In this document: piece after piece, positions 34,975 through 56,790 of the stretch
Layout: each line of letters begins with the position of its first letter
Position numbering within the stretch: position 1 is the stretch's first letter
DNA from: Escherichia coli
GTDB taxonomy: Bacteria > Pseudomonadota > Gammaproteobacteria > Enterobacterales > Enterobacteriaceae
NCBI RefSeq assembly: GCF_036507355.1
Contig: NZ_AP027877.1
DNA: 64,000 nucleotides
Strand: one strand, 5' to 3'
The notes under the pieces: generated by a model
Database searches by the model: none
Seen by the model: only the letters and a program-made list of their open reading frames with translations
Told to the model about the DNA's origin: nothing
Program-made: the position numbers and the translations under genes

Positions 34975-36492
34975 ATGTCTGAACAACACGCACAGGGCGC
35001 TGACGCGGTAGTCGATCTTAACAATGAACTGAAAACGCGTCGTGAGAAGCTGGCGAACCTGCGCGAGCAGGGGATTGCCTTCCCGAACGATTTCCGTCGC
35101 GATCATACCTCTGACCAATTGCACGCAGAATTCGACGGTAAAGAGAACGAAGAACTGGAAGCGCTGAATATCGAAGTCGCCGTTGCTGGCCGCATGATGA
35201 CCCGCCGTATTATGGGTAAAGCGTCTTTCGTTACCCTGCAGGATGTGGGTGGCCGCATTCAGCTGTACGTTGCCCGTGACGATCTGCCGGAAGGCGTTTA
35301 CAACGAGCAGTTCAAAAAATGGGACCTCGGCGACATCCTCGGCGCGAAAGGTAAACTGTTCAAAACCAAAACCGGCGAACTGTCTATCCACTGTACCGAG
35401 CTGCGTCTGCTGACCAAAGCACTGCGTCCGCTGCCGGATAAATTCCACGGCTTGCAGGATCAGGAAGCGCGCTATCGTCAGCGTTATCTGGATCTCATCT
35501 CTAACGATGAATCCCGTAACACCTTTAAAGTGCGCTCGCAGATCCTCTCTGGTATTCGCCAGTTCATGGTGAACCGCGGCTTTATGGAAGTTGAAACGCC
35601 GATGATGCAGGTGATCCCAGGCGGTGCCGCTGCGCGTCCGTTTATCACCCACCATAACGCGCTGGATCTCGACATGTACCTGCGTATCGCGCCGGAACTG
35701 TACCTCAAGCGTCTGGTGGTCGGTGGCTTCGAGCGTGTATTCGAAATCAACCGTAACTTCCGTAACGAAGGTATCTCCGTACGTCATAACCCAGAGTTCA
35801 CCATGATGGAACTCTACATGGCTTACGCAGATTACAAAGATCTGATCGAGCTGACCGAATCGCTGTTCCGTACTCTGGCACAGGATATTCTCGGTAAGAC
35901 GGAAGTGACCTACGGCGACGTGACGCTGGACTTCGGTAAACCGTTCGAAAAACTGACCATGCGAGAAGCGATCAAGAAATATCGCCCGGAAACCGACATG
36001 GCGGATCTGGATAACTTCGACTCTGCGAAAGCGATTGCTGAATCTATCGGTATCCACGTTGAGAAGAGCTGGGGTCTGGGCCGTATCGTTACCGAGATCT
36101 TCGAAGAAGTGGCAGAAGCACATCTGATTCAGCCGACCTTCATTACTGAATATCCGGCAGAAGTTTCTCCGCTGGCGCGTCGTAACGACATTAACCCGGA
36201 AATCACAGACCGCTTTGAGTTCTTCATTGGTGGTCGTGAAATCGGTAACGGCTTTAGCGAGCTGAATGACGCGGAAGATCAGGCGCAGCGCTTCCTGGAT
36301 CAGGTTGCCGCGAAAGATGCAGGTGACGACGAAGCGATGTTCTACGATGAAGATTACGTTACCGCACTGGAACATGGCTTACCGCCGACAGCAGGTCTGG
36401 GGATTGGCATCGACCGTATGGTAATGCTGTTCACCAACAGCCATACCATCCGCGACGTTATTCTGTTCCCGGCGATGCGTCCGGTGAAATAA
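34975..36492 (+). CDS. lysS: Lysyl-tRNA synthetase (constitutive)
   Basis: 505 aa, matches K-12 LysS. Confidence 0.97.
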
Positions 36493-36510: not shown

Positions 36511-36535
36511 AACCCCGGCAAATGTCGGGGTTTTT
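36511..36535 (+). terminator. lysS terminator, directly abutted by the IS1 end
   Basis: aaccccg-gcaaatgt-cggggttttt. The IS1 inverted repeat starts at the next base. Confidence 0.75.
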
Positions 36536-36550
36536 GGTAATGACTCCAAC

Positions 36551-37054
36551 TTATTGATAGTGTTTTATGTTCAGATAATGCCCGATGACTTTGTCATGCA
36601 GCTCCACCGATTTTGAGAACGACAGCGACTTCCGTCCCAGCCGTGCCAGGTGCTGCCTCAGATTCAGGTTATGCCGCTCAATTCGCTGCGTATATCGCTT
36701 GCTGATTACGTGCAGCTTTCCCTTCAGGCGGGATTCATACAGCGGCCAGCCATCCGTCATCCATATCACCACGTCAAAGGGTGACAGCAGGCTCATAAGA
36801 CGCCCCAGCGTCGCCATCGTGCGTTCACCGAATACGTGCGCAACAACCGTCTTCCGGAGCCTGTCATACGCGTAAAACAGCCAGCGCTGGCGCGATTTAG
36901 CCCCGACATAGCCCCACTGTTCGTCCATTTCCGCGCAGACGATGACGTCACTGCCCGGCTGTATGCGCGAGGTTACCGACTGCGGCCTGAGTTTTTTAAG
37001 TGACGTAAAATCGTGTTGAGGCCAACGCCCATAATGCGGGCTGTTGCCCGGCAT
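36551..37054 (-). CDS. insB: IS1 InsB' frame (transposase InsAB' via -1 frameshift at the A6 run 36992-36997)
   Basis: 167-aa frame overlapping the insA 3' end. The motif ttaaaaaac lies on the IS1 coding strand. Confidence 0.9.
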
Positions 37055-37248
37055 CCAACGCCATTCATGGCCATATCAATGATTTTCTGGTGCGTACCGG
37101 GTTGAGAAGCGGTGTAAGTGAACTGCAGTTGCCATGTTTTACGGCAGTGAGAGCAGAGATAGCGCTGATGTCCGGCGGTGCTTTTGCCGTTACGCACCAC
37201 CCCGTCAGTAGCTGAACAGGAGGGACAGCTGATAGAAACAGAAGCCAC
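36973..37248 (-). CDS. insA: IS1 InsA
   Basis: 91 aa, [43 protein letters not shown]... Confidence 0.95.
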
Positions 37249-37504
37249 TGGAGCACCTCAAAAACACCATCATACACTAAATCAGTAAGTTGGCAGCATC
37301 ACCCGCATCAGGATGGGAAATAGGGTAAAAAAGTAAGGAACTTCGATACCTCTACTACAGTGAATATTTTGCTGATGATACTTCCCTTTGCCAAATGAAA
37401 TTAACCTCTTTCTCTATTACCGCGTTTTTCCAGAAGCAAGAGATTGGGTATCAAGAGGCTGGCTGCTATGATATGGCGTCTTGTTTTTTAAGCGAGGAAA
37501 GATT

Positions 37505-38260
37505 TTGAGTGCGGGACGCCTGAATAAAAAATCTCTGGGTATCGTGATGTTGTTATCGGTTGGACTGCTTTTGGCGGGCTGTTCGGGTAGCAAATCATCC
37601 GATACAGGAACGTATTCCGGCTCCGTTTACACCGTGAAACGGGGGGATACGCTATATCGTATTTCGCGCACCACGGGAACCAGCGTAAAAGAACTGGCGC
37701 GACTGAACGGCATTTCCCCCCCTTACACTATTGAAGTAGGTCAGAAACTAAAACTGGGTGGGGCGAAAAGTAGCAGTAGTACACGTAAATCAACCGCCAA
37801 ATCAACGACTAAAACCGCATCGGTTACACCGTCATCAGCGGTACCGAAATCTTCCTGGCCGCCAGTAGGGCAACGTTGTTGGTTATGGCCAACGACAGGG
37901 AAAGTTATCATGCCGTATTCGACAGCAGATGGCGGCAATAAAGGGATTGATATCTCAGCTCCACGGGGTACACCTATTTACGCCGCGGGTGCAGGAAAGG
38001 TGGTGTATGTGGGCAACCAGCTGCGTGGCTACGGTAATCTCATCATGATTAAACACAGTGAAGATTACATTACGGCTTACGCCCATAATGACACGATGCT
38101 GGTAAATAATGGGCAAAGCGTGAGGGCTGGGCAAAAAATCGCCACCATGGGGAGCACGGATGCGGCATCTGTTCGCCTGCATTTCCAGATTCGTTACCGT
38201 GCAACGGCAATTGATCCGCTACGTTACTTGCCGCCGCAGGGCAGCAAGCCAAAATGCTGA
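37505..38260 (+). CDS. ygeR: LysM/M23 peptidase-family lipoprotein YgeR
   Basis: 251 aa from a TTG start, with SD gagga 7 nt upstream. Lipobox LLAGC, a LysM domain (YTVKRGDTLYRISR) and an M23 domain. Matches K-12 YgeR. Confidence 0.9.
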   Translation: MSAGRLNKKSLGIVMLLSVGLLLAGCSGSKSSDTGTYSGSVYTVKRGDTLYRISRTTGTSVKELARLNGISPPYTIEVGQKLKLGGAKSSSSTRKSTAKSTTKTASVTPSSAVPKSSWPPVGQRCWLWPTTGKVIMPYSTADGGNKGIDISAPRGTPIYAAGAGKVVYVGNQLRGYGNLIMIKHSEDYITAYAHNDTMLVNNGQSVRAGQKIATMGSTDAASVRLHFQIRYRATAIDPLRYLPPQGSKPKC

Positions 38261-38338: not shown

Positions 38339-38412
38339 GCGGGCGTAGTTCAATGGTAGAACGAGAGCTTCCCAAGCTCTATACGAGGGTTCGATTCCCT
38401 TCGCCCGCTCCA
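38339..38412 (+). tRNA. glyU: tRNA-Gly (anticodon CCC)
   Basis: gcgggcgtagttcaatggtagaacgagagcttCCCaagctctatacgagggttcgattcccttcgcccgctcca. 74 nt, cloverleaf-compatible, CCA encoded. Confidence 0.95.
38390..38412 (+). repeat. attL core (glyU 3' end)
   Basis: 23 bp identical to 42585-42607. Confidence 0.85.
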
Positions 38413-38546
38413 TGACCTTTCTTAAAGTACTCCAACCTACTGAATCCTAAGGGATACGGCTTTAAGCCTTCCGCTAGTTTTACTCACTGTAACCAACACT
38501 GTAACTAAATTTGTTGAAATAGTGAGCAGACTTAAGATCTCAGTAC

Positions 38547-40178
38547 ATGCTCAACTCAAAAACCTATCTTTATCAGCGCAATGGCGTCTTTTATATCCGC
38601 CTCAGGATGAAGTCCACAGATCGCCTGACCGTTTCACATCCTTCCCATAGCCGTTATAAAATAGCGTCAGTATCACTACGGACTAAGGATAGACGTACAG
38701 CTATGGCTTACTCACGGCAAATCAAGGCAGCACTTAGGGCAATCCATGCAGACAGACCCAACGCCTCCTATGAGGAAATGAGGGAACACCTGAGGGACAT
38801 CGCAGAGTGGGAGTTGTCTACAGGTCGTTCAGACCTCTTCGAGCCAGATATGAGAGATCTATACCGTGACCAGTATGGGGAAGTGGGAGAGAATCTTGTC
38901 CATGCTCTGGCAAGCGAGCCACTGACTATTGACCAGCATCGCTATATTAATGAGGCTCTTAATGTACTCAAGGCCTGCATGAAGCGCATTGAAGCGGGAG
39001 ATAGCCAGCCACTTATAGATTATATAGATGGATTTGATGCTGCTGCTGGGGCTAATGGCCAAGCCTCTGCAACTCTATCTGTTAGTGCTCCCCAAAAAAC
39101 AAGCATTACTGAAGGCAAACACTGCGTAACCGTTGCTTCTCTCTTTGAGCAGTACGAGCAGGAAAACGCCCAGAACTGGAAGCCAGCAACATTACGAGAA
39201 AACAAAGCTTCTCATGCTGCGTTAATCGAAGTTTTTGATTATCTGGGCCTCAATGCTGACGCCAATGTGTTAGCTCGTGCGGATATGCTTAGGGTTCGGG
39301 ATATCCTCCAGCAATTGCCGAAGAATCGTAAGCAGCGTTTCAAAGATGTTCCGTTGGTTGACCTGCTAGGTCGTGAGGATAAAACCGATTGTCTGGATAT
39401 TGTTACCATCAATAATAAATATCTCATTAAGATGGCGGCTGTTTTCAAGTGGGCCGTGCGTAATGACCTGATTAAAAAGAATATGACAGAAGGGCTAGAG
39501 CTTAAGGTTCCCCAGCGTAAAGCCTCTGAGGCGCGTAATGCTTTCTCTACGGAGCAGGTAGGACAACTACTGGCTGCCGCCCAAGTTTACTCACAGAGAC
39601 CTTCTGGTAAGCCGTATCATTATTATGTTACCGCCTTGGCTGCTATCACTGGGGCGAGACTCAATGAAATAGCCCAACTACAGGTCAAAGACGTCAGGAC
39701 CACTGAGGCGGGAACCGTTTATATTCATATCAATGAAGACGATAGTAGTCTACCCGGTAAGAGCATCAAGAACGCTCATAGTGACCGCTGTGTGCCTCTG
39801 GTCGATGGGGCCTATGGTTTTATATTGGCTGACTTTATGAGGTTGGTTGAGACCCGTAGAGGCGCTGATGGTGATGACGCTATGGTGTTCGATGGTCTTC
39901 GCCTCATGAAGAACGGTTACGGTGAGCAGGTGAGTAAATGGTTTAATCGGACGTTGTTGCCTAAAGTCCTCGCAGACCGTAGCGGCTTAGCGTTTCACTC
40001 GTTTAGACATACAGTTGCGACCCAGTTAAAACAACATGGGGTCGAGTTGGCGTATGCACAGGCGATCATGGGGCATAGTTCAGGGTCTATTACTTACGAC
40101 CGTTATGCTAAAGAGGTTGAGGTTGATAGACTGGTCAATGTGATGGCTGATGTTTATAAGGAGGTTGTGGCCCCTTAA
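38547..40178 (+). CDS. Tyrosine recombinase / integrase (large, 543 aa)
   Basis: The C-terminal catalytic signature is visible: ..GARLNEIAQL.. (R), HSFRHTVATQL (HxxR), GHSSGSITYDRY (H..Y). The N-terminus YLYQRNGVFYIRLR is typical of integrase N-terminal arm-binding domains. Confidence 0.85.
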   Translation: MLNSKTYLYQRNGVFYIRLRMKSTDRLTVSHPSHSRYKIASVSLRTKDRRTAMAYSRQIKAALRAIHADRPNASYEEMREHLRDIAEWELSTGRSDLFEPDMRDLYRDQYGEVGENLVHALASEPLTIDQHRYINEALNVLKACMKRIEAGDSQPLIDYIDGFDAAAGANGQASATLSVSAPQKTSITEGKHCVTVASLFEQYEQENAQNWKPATLRENKASHAALIEVFDYLGLNADANVLARADMLRVRDILQQLPKNRKQRFKDVPLVDLLGREDKTDCLDIVTINNKYLIKMAAVFKWAVRNDLIKKNMTEGLELKVPQRKASEARNAFSTEQVGQLLAAAQVYSQRPSGKPYHYYVTALAAITGARLNEIAQLQVKDVRTTEAGTVYIHINEDDSSLPGKSIKNAHSDRCVPLVDGAYGFILADFMRLVETRRGADGDDAMVFDGLRLMKNGYGEQVSKWFNRTLLPKVLADRSGLAFHSFRHTVATQLKQHGVELAYAQAIMGHSSGSITYDRYAKEVEVDRLVNVMADVYKEVVAP

Positions 40179-40180
40179 GG

Positions 40181-40219
40181 ATGACCATAGGCGATGACCA
40201 TAGGCGATGACCATAGGCG
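40181..40219 (+). repeat. Tandem 13-bp repeat atgaccataggcg x3 (plus a partial fourth)
   Basis: Three perfect head-to-tail copies begin 3 nt after the integrase stop. Each contains the reverse complement of the CTATGGTC motif that recurs at 40239-40291 and 40821-40848. Confidence 0.9.
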
Positions 40220-40330
40220 ATGACACTTGCTACTATTCCTATGGTCCCCTTTGTGGTCCTATGTGGTCCTGTGTGACCCTTTGTGTGGTCATGTTTTGAC
40301 TCATAGTTTTCACTACTTGTCAAGCATATT

Positions 40331-40353
40331 TAATACGACTCACTATAGGGAGA
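40331..40353 (+). promoter_or_regulatory. Phage T7 RNA polymerase class III promoter consensus, 23/23 match
   Basis: TAATACGACTCACTATAGGGAGA is read directly, with an AT-rich -22..-18 region (atatt). Predicted +1 is the G at 40348. It points toward the cargo genes at 41158 and 41845. The sequence match is certain. Its function in vivo is inference. Confidence 0.85.
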
Positions 40354-40585
40354 AGGGACACAAAAAGTTTTCTCTCTCTGTCTCTCTCTATGATGACACT
40401 TGCTACTACTTCAGGTAGCTTTAACTCTAACCGTAACTTATCGCATCCTTTCAGGGGCGGGATGACCAATTACAGACACCAAGCGTTCTACTTAAAATGA
40501 ATGCTTCCTGTGTGCTCTGGGTCAGTCGATAAGTGAATAGCCTTAGACATCATATTAATTATGGTCTCTAACCCCTACAGGGGCT

Positions 40586-40729
40586 TAACTTTAAGTATTA
40601 ACTTATAGTCTACTTAAAGACACAATTAAAGATTAACTTAAAGTATTAAATTATAGATTAATTAAAGACCAATTAAAGAGTAACTTTAAGTATTAACTTA
40701 TAGTCTACTTAAAGACACAATTAAAGATT
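40586..40729 (+). repeat. Three tandem ~47-bp AT-rich iteron-like repeats
   Basis: The 49-bp string taactttaagtattaacttatagtctacttaaagacacaattaaagatt is identical at 40586-40634 and 40681-40729. A degenerate copy (40635-40680) lies between them. All are rich in TTAAAG submotifs. Confidence 0.85.
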
Positions 40730-40922
40730 GACTCTAAGGGAATACCTTAAGAGGTGATGATATTCATAATAATCAATCACCAAACCTATAGGTCTCCTCA
40801 AGGCATTACCCAGAAGCTAACTGTATGGCCCTGTATGGTCCTGTACGCCATTCTTTAGGATGCCATGTAGTTTCGTATGGCCTGATGCCTAGCGTGGCTC
40901 AGAGACCCTCCCAGTAGTAAAT

Positions 40923-40945
40923 CAATACGACTTACTAATAGGAGA
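40923..40945 (+). promoter_or_regulatory. Degenerate T7-like promoter
   Basis: caatacgacttactaataggaga matches the T7 consensus at 18/23 ungapped, or better if a 1-nt insertion near -3 is allowed. It lies 213 nt upstream of the 41158 ORF. Confidence 0.35.
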
Positions 40946-41157
40946 CACACTCCGAACCACTCACCACGTGTCTCTCAAAGTTCCACCTCTCGCGCTTCAC
41001 CATACAGTAGCTCCGCACAGCTACGACACAATCATTCATTCAATCTCAAAGTCATTCTGTTTGCATCCTGTTGTCCTGCTGGTCTCCCTTCGCTTGGGGA
41101 CTTTGAGTGGGCCAGTAGGGGGCGGTTTAGTGTGCATATTTAAAAGGTAACCAAGCA

Positions 41158-41721
41158 ATGAACAATAAACATAAACATGCAGGTCATATTATCACTATTG
41201 AAGGCCACAGCTTTAAGTCTAATGAGTCTGGCATGTGGAATCTTACAGAAATATGGAAAATCCTCGGATTACCTAACAATAAGCTACCCTCTCAGTGGCG
41301 CGGCAAGGTAACAAAGAGGCTCACCGACATGCAAAAAATGCACGTCGAGAAGATTGGTATTGAAAGCATAACCTACGCAGACAAACAGGCTACCCTCAAG
41401 TATGCAGGATGGGTCTCTGAAGATTTCGAGGACATGGTCTATGCAGCCTTTGAGGCTATCCTTGAGATGCCTGAAGTTGCCACGGTCGTTGCTAATAAGA
41501 TGGTCGAACTTGGCTATCACGCTGAAGCTGAGCTATTGGAACGTCATAAGGACGACTATAGAGAAGCTATGCAGACCCTTAAAAAGATTGGTAAACGTGT
41601 TGACGGCAGGAAGCCTGAGCGCATCTACAAGGCCGTACTTAACGGTAATCTGACGAAATTTCAAGGGTTATCCATGATTTCTCGCAGCAGTGTCTGGTAC
41701 GCCCGAACAGTGAATCTATGA
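41158..41721 (+). CDS. KilA-N-like DNA-binding domain protein (tentative)
   Basis: 187 aa. The N-terminal pattern is ..ITIEGHSFKSNESGMWNLTEIWKILGL..P.QW.. followed by ..TYADKQATLKYAGWVSEDFEDMV.. This resembles the KilA-N/Bro-type fold as I remember it. The C-terminal half is helical and basic. Confidence 0.5.
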   Translation: MNNKHKHAGHIITIEGHSFKSNESGMWNLTEIWKILGLPNNKLPSQWRGKVTKRLTDMQKMHVEKIGIESITYADKQATLKYAGWVSEDFEDMVYAAFEAILEMPEVATVVANKMVELGYHAEAELLERHKDDYREAMQTLKKIGKRVDGRKPERIYKAVLNGNLTKFQGLSMISRSSVWYARTVNL

Positions 41722-41844
41722 TGGCTATCGATCACGATAGATGCCAGCGATCAATTTCAGGTTACCGATCGAAACAAACGATCAGCACGATGGTTGCAAT
41801 CGGATATCATATTGACACTTGTCTGACATCCTGAAGGTATCAAT

Positions 41845-42318
41845 ATGTTTGGGCTTTTTAAGAAAAAGGCAAAAGCGGAAAGGTGTTATGATGTAACACG
41901 CATTCAATACGAGCTGGTTGTAATGTCATCTAAGCTGATAAAAAAACAGACCGATATGTTCAAAGTAATAAAAGGGGAGCGAGAGGAGGCTTTAGGAGAC
42001 CCTTTATTATCAGCAGGGTATATAACGCCATGGGTCATTGGATATTGCACTGGTCTCCTGGATGCAGTGACTCAGACGGAGGCTAACAGGATGGCATTTA
42101 CATCAGAAATGCTTGGGCTTCTTTTTGCTGCAGTTTTCGGTGATGATAAGTCTCTTGAGGCCATGGGAACTTATATAGCCTGTAACGAAGCCTCCTCACC
42201 AGACCATGGATTTCATGTTACGTATGAGCTTTATATGTCTGGTCTAGCGAAAGCGTTTAATGAGGTATGTGAGGATAAACCTGCGATAGGACTTCTGAAC
42301 TATTTAATGCAGGATTGA
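41845..42318 (+). CDS. Hypothetical protein (157 aa), no recognisable family
   Basis: Intact ORF on the same strand as the T7 promoter and the 41158 ORF. It is preceded by a GATC-rich spacer. Confidence 0.55.
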   Translation: MFGLFKKKAKAERCYDVTRIQYELVVMSSKLIKKQTDMFKVIKGEREEALGDPLLSAGYITPWVIGYCTGLLDAVTQTEANRMAFTSEMLGLLFAAVFGDDKSLEAMGTYIACNEASSPDHGFHVTYELYMSGLAKAFNEVCEDKPAIGLLNYLMQD

Positions 42319-42584
42319 AAATTTCCCACAAAAATCTCAGTGCCTATCTAACAGTAATAACCCTGCAACATTCCCCCGTATACCTCCAGAAGTTATCCAG
42401 AAGCCGAAGTAGGTATCCTGTCATGTATTTGAATCATCAAAGTTGTTCGTTCTATTCCTCTTTAGGGAATATTACAGCCCTACAGCCTTGACCAGAGATC
42501 ACTTGATGTGTAACCATAACTGTAACCAAAAGGATTCATCATCCTTTAAGAAACAATTGGTTAGTGAGTGATTGTCTTCGATAC

Positions 42585-54604: not shown

Positions 54605-55417
54605 CTAGACACTTCCGAGCCGTTGATAATACTGGTTTTCATATTCTGTCGGTGACATCTGATCGCTGGAACCATGCCGACGCTTACTGTTATAAAACAT
54701 TTCGATGTAATCAAAAATATCGCTGCGGGCTTCTTCCCGCGTTCCGTAGATCTTTTTCTTTATCCGTTCGCGTTTCAACAACTGGAAAAAGCTTTCTGCA
54801 ACCGCATTATCATGGCAGTTACCGCGACGGCTCATGCTGCCCTCCAGGCCGTGTGATTTCAGGAACGACTGCCACTCATGGCTTGTGTACTGACTGCCCT
54901 GATCCGAATGAACCAGCACCTGTTTTTGGGGATTACGGCGCCATACAGCCATCAGCAGTGCGTTCAGGACAATGTCCTTTGTCATCCGGGATTGCATGGA
55001 CCAGCCGATAATTTTGCGTGAGAACAGATCAACAACCACGGCAAGATACAGCCAGCCTTCGTGGGTCCTGATGTAGGTTATGTCCGTTACCCAACGCTTA
55101 TCCGGAGCATCCGGATTGAACTGTCGCTGGAGCCTGTTGGGCGACACGATACTGGCCTCGCCTTTACGTGCCCGCGGGCTCCGGTATCCGACCTGAGCCT
55201 TTATCCCGACACGTTTCATCAGTCGCCAGACTCTGTTCACTCCGCACTGTTGCCCGCTGTCCCGCAGATCCAGATGGATTTTGCGATAACCATAGACGCA
55301 TCCCGATTCCAGCCAGAACTGTTTAATCTGCCCTGTCAGCCTCAGGTCTGCCTGATGGCGTTGTGAATGCGGCTGCTGAAGCCAGGCGTAAAAACCACTG
55401 GGATGAACATCCAGCAC
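54605..55417 (-). CDS. IS3-family OrfB (DDE transposase core; expressed as an OrfAB fusion)
   Basis: 270-aa frame with DDE-type blocks ([29 protein letters not shown]). Confidence 0.9.
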
Positions 55418-55473
55418 CCGACAGAGCAGGCGAACAGGCCAGCAACAGGTGTTGTCACGGATAAAGGCGTACC

Positions 55474-55758
55474 TCAGTCGGACAGCTTTGCGAAGTACGC
55501 CGCGGCTTTTTTTAATATGTCCCGTTCGTCGGTAACCCGCTTCAGCTCTTTCTGGAGACGGCGGATCTCGGCCTGAGCATCTGACTGTTCTTTATTAGCG
55601 GAAGAATCCGGACCGTACTTCTTTATCCAGGCGTAAAGGCTGTGGGTGGTGATATCGAGACGTGTTGCAACGCTGGCAACAGAATAACCGCGATCAACAA
55701 CCTGTTTGACTGCTTCAATTTTAAACTCTTCGGGATAACGCTTACCGCTCATGGGCAC
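55474..55758 (-). CDS. IS3-family OrfA (HTH)
   Basis: 94 aa, ..KRYPEEFKIEAVKQVVDRGYSVASVATRLDITTHSLYAWIKKY.. LKKAAAYFAK. Confidence 0.9.
   Translation of the reverse strand: MPMSGKRYPEEFKIEAVKQVVDRGYSVASVATRLDITTHSLYAWIKKYGPDSSANKEQSDAQAEIRRLQKELKRVTDERDILKKAAAYFAKLSD
55507..55513 (-). promoter_or_regulatory. Probable -1 programmed frameshift site (A AAA AAG)
   Basis: An A7 run sits on the IS coding strand inside the orfA 3' end (..ATATTAAAAAAAGCCGCGG..), the canonical IS3-family slippery motif. Confidence 0.6.
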
Positions 55759-55812
55759 CTCTCTTTAAGCCATCTTAAATGACTCTGAGGTGTCTGTTAA
55801 ACCCGTGGCGAT

Positions 55813-56790
55813 TCACTCTAATGCTTTTTGAGCAGCAAGTTCAAGTTCACTTTTTCCATGAAGTGCCAAAGACATATGGCATTCCGCTAGAAGGCAATAA
55901 CATTCTGTTTTTAGCGTCTGTATATCACTTTTATTTTGTAATCCATCAAATATAGTCATGGCCCTGTAAATGCTTTCAGGGGTGAACTCGTAAAGTTCTT
56001 TCTTTCCGGCTAACATTTCATCTGATAAATAATGATTCTTATATCCTTGGTCCTGCTTAGCTAATCTTACAGATCGTTCTGGTTTATGTACCGTTTGAAG
56101 GATATTATCTATAATAAATTGTGATGTATTATGTAGTTCATCAACAGGGAGATGATTACTGGCGATGAGGAAAAGGTTTTTAGCGTCGATCAACTCAATG
56201 TATAAAGTGTTCACTGCATTATTCTGGTTTATTCTTCCTGTAACGAAATAATCTGGCTTGAATCTGCTCAAGAATGAATTTTGAGATATGTGGTCATTAC
56301 AAAAATTTGTCGCAGCCATCGGATAGGTATAGAGACCATCGATTTTTTTATTTGAAATGATTTGTACTAATTCCTGATTAAGTATTAATGGATCCAGTGT
56401 ATTCAATGAAGTGGTGAAAGGGAATATAGCTATGGAATAGTCTGAAGTATTATCTTCATTAATTTTAGTTTTGAAAACCTGCCCGCTGAAACGATAACCT
56501 TTCCGGTAGATTGTTTCTATGCAGCGATCATAGCCAATTTTTTCAAAAATGCAGCGCAAAGAATAGATACATCTTGTCAGGGACTCGTCACTAACAATAA
56601 TATTTTTCCATACTGATTCGATGATCATATCTTTCAGTACAACATGACCAGCGGATTCAAGTAATACTATTAATACACCTAACTCTTTCGGTGGAATATA
56701 AACTTGCTCATTTCCTTGAGTAAGAATTCCATCTTCCGTGAGCGTTAATCCCTCAAGAAAATGATATGAGAATTTATTTTCTAAGTCCAT
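55813..56790 (-). pseudogene. ygeH: ETT2 HilA-like regulator YgeH, 3'-truncated by the IS (325 of ~458 codons)
   Basis: [25 protein letters not shown].. with an OmpR/ToxR-type winged helix. The ORF's stop codon TGA (55813-55815) is supplied by the IS terminus. Confidence 0.85.

Follow-up and report, generated by a model that had tools for sequence, protein, structure and literature searches.

The 64-kb stretch of Escherichia coli DNA analyzed here (referred to as the window) was aligned by BLAST to positions 2,990,000-3,038,000 of the K-12 MG1655 chromosome and to its annotation. The part of the window considered in most detail contains an intact lysS gene with its intrinsic terminator, a complete copy of the insertion sequence IS1, a segment of the intergenic region that in K-12 separates actS from xdhA, an intact actS gene, and the tRNA gene glyU. 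The final gene ahead of the IS1 joint is lysS. The coordinates of these features, and of those that lie beyond glyU, are collected in Table 1.

Table 1. Features of the window. Positions are window coordinates; K-12 positions refer to strain MG1655.
Feature	Position	Strand	Remarks
lysS, lysine--tRNA ligase, intact	34975..36492	+	NCBIfam NF009101, 1108.8 bits, full length; collinear with K-12
lysS intrinsic terminator	36511..36535	+	hairpin 36511-36532 kept; RNA fold -20.7 kcal/mol, z = -3.7
Left 9-bp flank, GGGGTTTTT	36527..36535		last base = K-12 3033614
IS1, IS1A type	36536..37303	-	IRR end at 36536, IRL end at 37303
insB' frame, catalytic part of the InsAB' transposase	36551..37054	-	167-aa ORF; NCBIfam transpos_IS1 NF033558, E=1.8e-42
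insA frame	36973..37248	-	91 aa, GTG start; NCBIfam IS1 transposase model NF033558, E=7.5e-26
Right 9-bp flank, CGCATCAGG	37304..37312		first base = K-12 3000088
Retained actS-xdhA intergenic stretch, directly upstream of actS	37304..37504	+	201 bp; 95.5% identity to K-12 3000088->2999893
actS (ygeR), LysM/M23 amidase activator, intact	37505..38260	+	NCBIfam NF040883 (ActS), E=1.1e-136
glyU, tRNA-Gly(CCC)	38339..38412	+	ARAGORN; BLAST to K-12
First element behind glyU	38413..42584		4.2-kb module with 543-aa tyrosine recombinase
Second element behind glyU	42585 to about 54600		island with 408-aa integrase, DUF2326, HEPN/RES-like genes, arsRDABC operon, GNAT gene
IS3-family OrfB (rve domain)	54605..55417	-	about 0.4 kb from truncated ygeH
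ygeH, truncated	55813..56790	-	N-terminal 325/458 codons left

The IS1 element is complete (768 bp), and its transposase is encoded on the minus strand. Its IRR end opens with GGTAATGACTCCAACTTATTG and its IRL end closes with AAGTTGGCAGCATCACC; both its length and its imperfect terminal inverted repeats, GGTGATGCTGCCAACTTACTGAT and GGTAATGACTCCAACTTATTGAT, which are identical at 18 of the first 23 positions, are those of an IS1. The A6C motif for -1 frameshifting (AAAAAAC) is found at IS1 position 307, at the 3' end of insA. Over its 768 bp the element shows 0 differences (100% identity) from the IS1 of strain A30, which is annotated in RefSeq as intact and of the IS1A family. It is the only IS1 copy in the window (n = 1), in which there is also no internal repeat longer than 150 bp. 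Both features would be unusual for Shigella, a candidate source whose genomes lie outside the E. coli collection used here. A promoter-like match (CTGCCA, a 16-nt spacer, and TATGAT, at 37296-37269 on the minus strand) can be recognized in the IRL end; it is directed away from actS and lies at the location of the insA promoter.

The two 9-bp sequences that flank the element share the same base at no more than 2 of 9 positions, and a target-site duplication is lacking at every length between 6 and 11 bp, while a duplication of 9 bp, or rarely 8 bp, is expected for a simple insertion. The initial annotation, which was made from the sequence alone, had described a complete 768-bp IS1 with differing 9-bp flanks, and this description is borne out in every detail. 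A missing duplication is expected for an IS1 copy that has been left behind by a deletion or a recombination, and does not affect the assignment of the element to IS1.

On the lysS side, the alignment runs as far as window position 36535 and K-12 3033614. This K-12 base lies immediately beyond the idi stop codon, within the 43-bp spacer of the convergent lysS and idi genes. The joint falls just after the hairpin of the lysS terminator; this terminator was not flagged by a simple terminator scan, but its hairpin is evident on folding. The T-run that follows the hairpin is shortened by the IS1 joint from 7 T in K-12 (cggggtttttttat) to 5 T in the window (cggggttttt/ggtaatg, where the slash marks the joint); the final two T of the K-12 run are the complement of the idi stop codon. 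On the actS side, the alignment starts from window position 37304 and from K-12 3000088 downward, a point within the 453-bp actS-xdhA spacer that precedes the actS start by 197 bp. The alignment of the window to an E. coli locus in which xdhA is intact (L055) also begins exactly at 37304. The actS gene retains 201 bp of upstream DNA, and transcription of IS1 is directed away from it. The sequences on the two sides of IS1 are on the same strand and collinear with K-12, and the breakpoints coincide exactly with both IS1 ends; since the flanks are collinear in their native orientation, a simple inversion is ruled out. The joint had originally been placed between the lysS terminator and the region upstream of ygeR: this placement holds, with the corrections that the terminator has lost part of its T-run and that ygeR is now named actS.

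Collinearity with K-12 on the actS side ends at glyU, which is the attachment point of islands; two elements lie behind it in tandem. In the second of these, the part between 42585 and 48000 has counterparts in a different genus at 99.6-99.8% identity, against only ~80% for the core DNA of that genus, a disparity that points to a recent horizontal spread of this island. Farther along, in the region 54605-56790, an IS3-family OrfB is found close to a ygeH gene reduced to its N-terminal portion, and the ETT2 remnant lacks the K-12 genes from ygeQ to ygeI; here the window may contain a second truncation associated with an IS.

The K-12 segment that is missing between the two joints (3000089..3033613) amounts to 33,525 bp and, according to the K-12 annotation, to 25 genes, from xdhA through idi: xdhABC, ygeV, ygeW, ygeX, ygeY, hyuA, yqeA, yqeB, yqeC, mocA, ygfK, ssnA, ygfM, xdhD, xanQ, guaD, ghxQ, ygfS, ygfT, uacT, yqfG, yqfH and idi. 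In the BLAST comparison with K-12, no part of the xdhA..idi interval was found anywhere in the 64-kb window. The absence of the block between lysS and ygeR had been noticed in the initial annotation, whose K-12 gene order from lysS to ygeR/glyU agrees with the annotation table; its estimate of the size of the block (35-40 kb) was slightly too high.

On the basis of the K-12 annotation and of the literature, the missing segment predicts the loss of xanthine dehydrogenase XdhABC, guanine deaminase, the purine/urate transporters XanQ, GhxQ and UacT, MocA and idi. It also predicts the loss of the complete reductive (anaerobic) pathway for the degradation of uric acid, which is formed by XdhD-YgfM, YgfK, SsnA, HyuA, YgeW, YqeA, YgeY and YgeX (PMC12507026). 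The regulator YgeV, the maturation factors YqeB, YqeC and MocA, as well as YgfS and YgfT, are encoded in the same block (K-12 annotation; PMC12507026). The earlier suggestion that the strain has been deprived of xanthine dehydrogenase and of a purine catabolic cluster is supported in the form of a prediction from these two sources. In another enterobacterial genus idi is found beside actS, at a distance of 163 bp (L054/L057, 8236-9682), an adjacency that makes the entire E. coli xdh-ygf block look like an insert between idi and actS; the deletion in the window takes out the xdh-ygf block plus idi.

We have studied how common the intact block is by searching 5426 complete E. coli genomes with a 24.6-kb query extending from xdhA to xdhD, which was covered to at least 80% in one piece in 5151 of them (95%). 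Many E. coli assemblies encode an ActS protein identical to that of the window, and xdhABC adjoins its gene in all 10 of the 10 contexts shown. The existence of strains with identical ActS next to xdhABC, together with a prevalence of 95%, makes an ancestral absence of the block, which the initial annotation had left as a possibility, very unlikely. At the level of the species, which is the level of this comparison of ancestral states, the block is the normal condition of E. coli, and its loss in the window a derived one.

Among the same 5426 genomes, the best identity to a 22.5-kb stretch of core DNA in the window (14000-36535) was 99.0%; either the source lineage has no close relative in this collection, or the stretch 14000-36535 is a recombination mosaic. 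Like ActS, the RecJ protein and the 543-aa and 408-aa integrases of the window represent either common alleles or components of an island with a wide distribution. Exact-match scans of species-representative genomes and of metagenome contigs returned neither of the exact joints, and in none of the 5426 complete E. coli genomes was either exact joint combined with the other flank of the window. A genome that could represent the parental state, with either exact joint and an intact block, was likewise absent from the 5426 E. coli genomes, where the best core identity was only that given above, and from the contig collections.

Deletions of the same general kind are found in other strains. In the complete E. 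coli genomes we examined 23 loci with an IS1 near actS or lysS, mapping the IS1 flanks to K-12 wherever they matched. Between lysS and actS, other strains in the set of 5426 E. coli genomes have at least 20 distinct IS1-bounded joints besides those of the window (Table 2). All 23 loci represent a deletion or a rearrangement, with 0 simple insertions and 0 target-site duplications, and part of the interval is gone in every locus that could be mapped on both sides. The loci of this series (L002-L005, L024-L042, L053) have their joints at K-12 3000060-3005184 and 3015117-3033614; further IS1-bounded examples, which are unmapped, were seen in assemblies met via RecJ (L045, L046, L050, L051). The deletion in the window is the largest of the set, and the sole one that removes idi entirely and ends in the lysS terminator; its left joint is found in no other strain of the set.

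Table 2. IS1-bounded joints in the lysS-actS interval. Left and right joints are K-12 coordinates; the orientation of IS1 is relative to that in the window.
Strain	Left joint	Right joint	IS1 orientation
Window	3033614	3000088	same
KH_005	3031004	3000088	same
SW071610 + ET881	3033058	3000515	same
A30	3032771	3000103	same
XJ6.2 + ABW_A32	3015117	3000161	same
EC556	3030981	3000119	same
LF3-1	3032222	3000454	same
GF66.2 + PSS-11	3030953	3000416	same
Z503	3029816	3000144	same
AST217	3031055	3000144	same
N-01	3031029	3000128	same
23CRST013	3031029	3000063	same
720632	3032090	3000060	same
19SZHZ886Rt	3033563	3004842	same
PSJ-14	3033467	3004527	same
702/18	3033033	3005184	same
C21	3033187	3000128	opposite
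strain 10	3033033	3000336	opposite
EA7	3031836	3000064	opposite
Ecol_AZ155	idi'-IS1-ygfT (from annotation alone)
AF3	flank rearranged	3000088	opposite
N10	flank rearranged	3000246	opposite

The first 16 events recovered all had IS1 oriented as in the window. An apparent bias toward a single orientation was nevertheless rejected, because the joint queries had joined pieces on one strand only: when synthetic queries with a reversed IS1 end were used, the opposite orientation was found in 23 genomes near actS and in 44 near lysS. In total, an IS1 lies within ~0.6 kb upstream of actS in 41 genomes (18 in the orientation of the window, 23 opposite), and within ~0.6 kb of the lysS 3' end in 52 genomes (8 in the orientation of the window, 44 opposite), these two sets being overlapping.

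Two aspects of this series bear on the way in which the deletions came about. Strains N-01 and 23CRST013 have identical left joints, IS1 copies and flanking alleles, while a distance of 65 bp separates their right joints; such a pair is the signature of a deletion that extends stepwise from a resident IS. At other loci (L004, L025, L028, L029, L031) the IS1 copies are mosaic, with one part identical to the IS1A type and the rest 5-15% divergent, the differences being confined to one end or to the middle of the element. These mosaic copies are compatible with recombination between IS1 variants.

The joints are not spread evenly over the interval: right ends cluster at 3000060-3000161, in the actS-xdhA spacer, and left ends at 3030953-3031055, in the ygfT-uacT spacer. 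Individual positions are also reused. Position 3000088 is reached three times, in the window, in KH_005 (same orientation) and in AF3 (opposite orientation); position 3000128 twice, with opposite orientations, in N-01 and C21; position 3000144 twice, in Z503 and AST217; and position 3033033 twice, again with opposite orientations, in 702/18 and strain 10. The case of KH_005 is the closest to the window, with which it shares the interval, the element, the right joint (3000088, CGCATCAGG), the orientation and the lack of a duplication, and from which it differs in the left joint. We considered a single ancestral event common to the two and rejected it: in the 127 bp beside the shared right joint, the IS1 of KH_005 differs from that of the window at 16 positions, which makes the two events independent hits on the same base, with no common origin. 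The target reused here, CGCATCAGG, is similar to the tip of the IS1 IRL end (GCATCACC), and hot spots with homology to the ends of IS1 have been described earlier.

Adjacent deletion is a classical behavior of IS1 in E. coli. In the window the IS1 is intact, its flanks differ, the breakpoints are the ends of the element, the flanking genes are collinear with K-12, and the block that is missing belongs to the common state of the species. We consider a derived deletion made by IS1 to be the best explanation of this arrangement, with a probability of about 0.87. The initial annotation had proposed either an IS1-mediated deletion or a recombination between IS1 copies as the simplest explanation, and this proposal is supported by the coincidence of the breakpoints with the IS1 ends, by the collinear flanks and by the presence of the block in 95% of the genomes. 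The order of the events would be as follows. The ancestor would have had the arrangement lysS-idi-yqfH-yqfG-uacT-ygfTS-ghxQ-guaD-xanQ-xdhD-ygfM-ssnA-ygfK-mocA-yqeCBA-hyuA-ygeYXWV-xdhCBA-actS, and would have gained an IS1 at the position of one of today's joints. The ends of this IS1 would then have attacked another site in the same chromosome by intramolecular transposition (adjacent deletion), with loss of the intervening DNA and retention of a single IS1 copy. The lack of a 9-bp duplication would follow from the fact that the two flanks originate from different places.

The same product, one IS1 copy whose two flanks stem from separate sites, would also be obtained if RecA-dependent recombination between two direct IS1 copies, one located at the lysS terminator and the other ahead of actS, had excised the block together with one IS1. 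This second route to an IS1-mediated deletion is a serious, if less probable, candidate. Both routes are known to be frequent: IS copies without duplications arise either through adjacent deletions, which often grow over time, or through IS-IS recombination, a documented source of missing duplications (Ngan et al. 2024, PMC11708052). Mosaic elements, part IS1A-type and part divergent, at analogous joints in KH_005, GF66.2, Z503, EC556 and AST217 have the appearance that recombinational hybrids would have. Against this route, it requires two earlier insertions instead of one, and it does not explain the stepwise extension seen between N-01 and 23CRST013; moreover, at none of the inspected loci is the whole interval or a portion of it enclosed by a pair of IS1 copies. 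Because of that extension, and of the lack of an inspected locus with two bracketing copies, we lean toward adjacent deletion. This preference derives from the series as a whole: the IS1 of the window is of the common IS1A type, has no mosaic structure and carries no chimeric signal in either direction, and for the window itself nothing separates adjacent deletion from recombination.

The remaining explanations do not invoke a deletion made by IS1. One is that the joint is an artefact of assembly, in which lysS was connected to actS through a collapsed IS1 repeat and the true order is IS1-block-IS1, or else that the block has moved next to another IS1. An IS1 repeat is longer than short reads, and collapsing two flanking copies would in principle yield the sequence seen here; furthermore, the 64 kb in view are only part of the genome, and the block could sit elsewhere. 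We regard this explanation as improbable, given that the same kind of joint is seen in many complete genomes, that flanks collinear in native orientation exclude a simple inversion, and that the window contains neither a second IS1 nor any other repeat longer than 150 bp.

Somewhat less probable still is the capture of an IS1 at a DNA break in the course of a deletion not made by transposase, a model put forward by Ngan et al. (2024) for some IS5/IS481 events. This model too predicts an IS at the center of a deletion and no duplication (PMC11708052). In the same study, however, all 14 of the 14 IS-plus-deletion events in three LTEE populations could be explained by an ordinary multistep process, consisting of insertion, adjacent deletion and often extension (PMC11708052). 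Moreover, in the series described here the joints reuse positions that have been hit repeatedly by IS1 ends in both orientations (3000088 three times, 3000128 and 3033033 twice each), which argues for target choice by the transposase rather than for random breaks. Finally, it is hardly credible that the lineage never had the block and that IS1 sits at, or has trimmed, an old idi-actS junction: idi does directly adjoin actS, with no xdh-ygf block, in the other enterobacterial genus (~80% core DNA identity; L054, L057), but the window has 98.7-99.0% identity to E. coli, a species in which 95% of the genomes have the block, its retained 201 bp are those of the E. coli actS-xdhA spacer and exceed the entire 163-bp idi-actS spacer of the other genus, and its left flank runs as far as the idi stop codon in the gene order of E. 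coli.

A derived deletion made by IS1 can be compared with systems already described. As in the IS1-promoted adjacent deletions discussed by Ngan et al. (PMC11708052), an intact IS is found in the window at a novel joint, with no duplication and with collinear flanks; in those cases, too, related strains show deletions that grow from a fixed IS end. The difference from a classical adjacent deletion is that here the one-ended mechanism is an inferred one. The accounts of large IS1-related deletions in E. coli isolates and evolution experiments that deal with the nfsB region (PMC10569738) and with the LTEE rearrangements (PMC4173774) concern the same element and the removal of tens of kb of non-essential DNA; the locus is another one, whereas what is lost in the window is the xanthine/uric-acid block between lysS and actS. 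Our literature search returned nothing specific on an IS1 deletion between xdhA and lysS, and for the ygeR-xdhA spacer only a point mutation is mentioned (PMC12416847). The window contributes a new allele to a familiar class of events, the mechanism of which is textbook and not surprising.

These results can also be viewed in the broader context of the lysS-actS interval. We tentatively suggest that it may be a fragile locus that is recurrently deleted, in which short stretches of the actS-xdhA and ygfT-uacT spacers would be IS1 target hot spots at the nucleotide level, perhaps helped by the likeness between target and IS1 tip; IS1-rich lineages would then repeatedly lose the uric-acid pathway, possibly under selection, and the allele of the window would be the extreme of this series. 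The naturally occurring, independent IS1 deletion alleles of this locus, whose ends are known to the base and whose targets are reused, could serve to study target choice by IS1 and stepwise genome reduction. The reductive uric-acid pathway has recently been tied to the clearance of urate by gut bacteria, and E. coli strains without the pathway would not add to this clearance in the gut.
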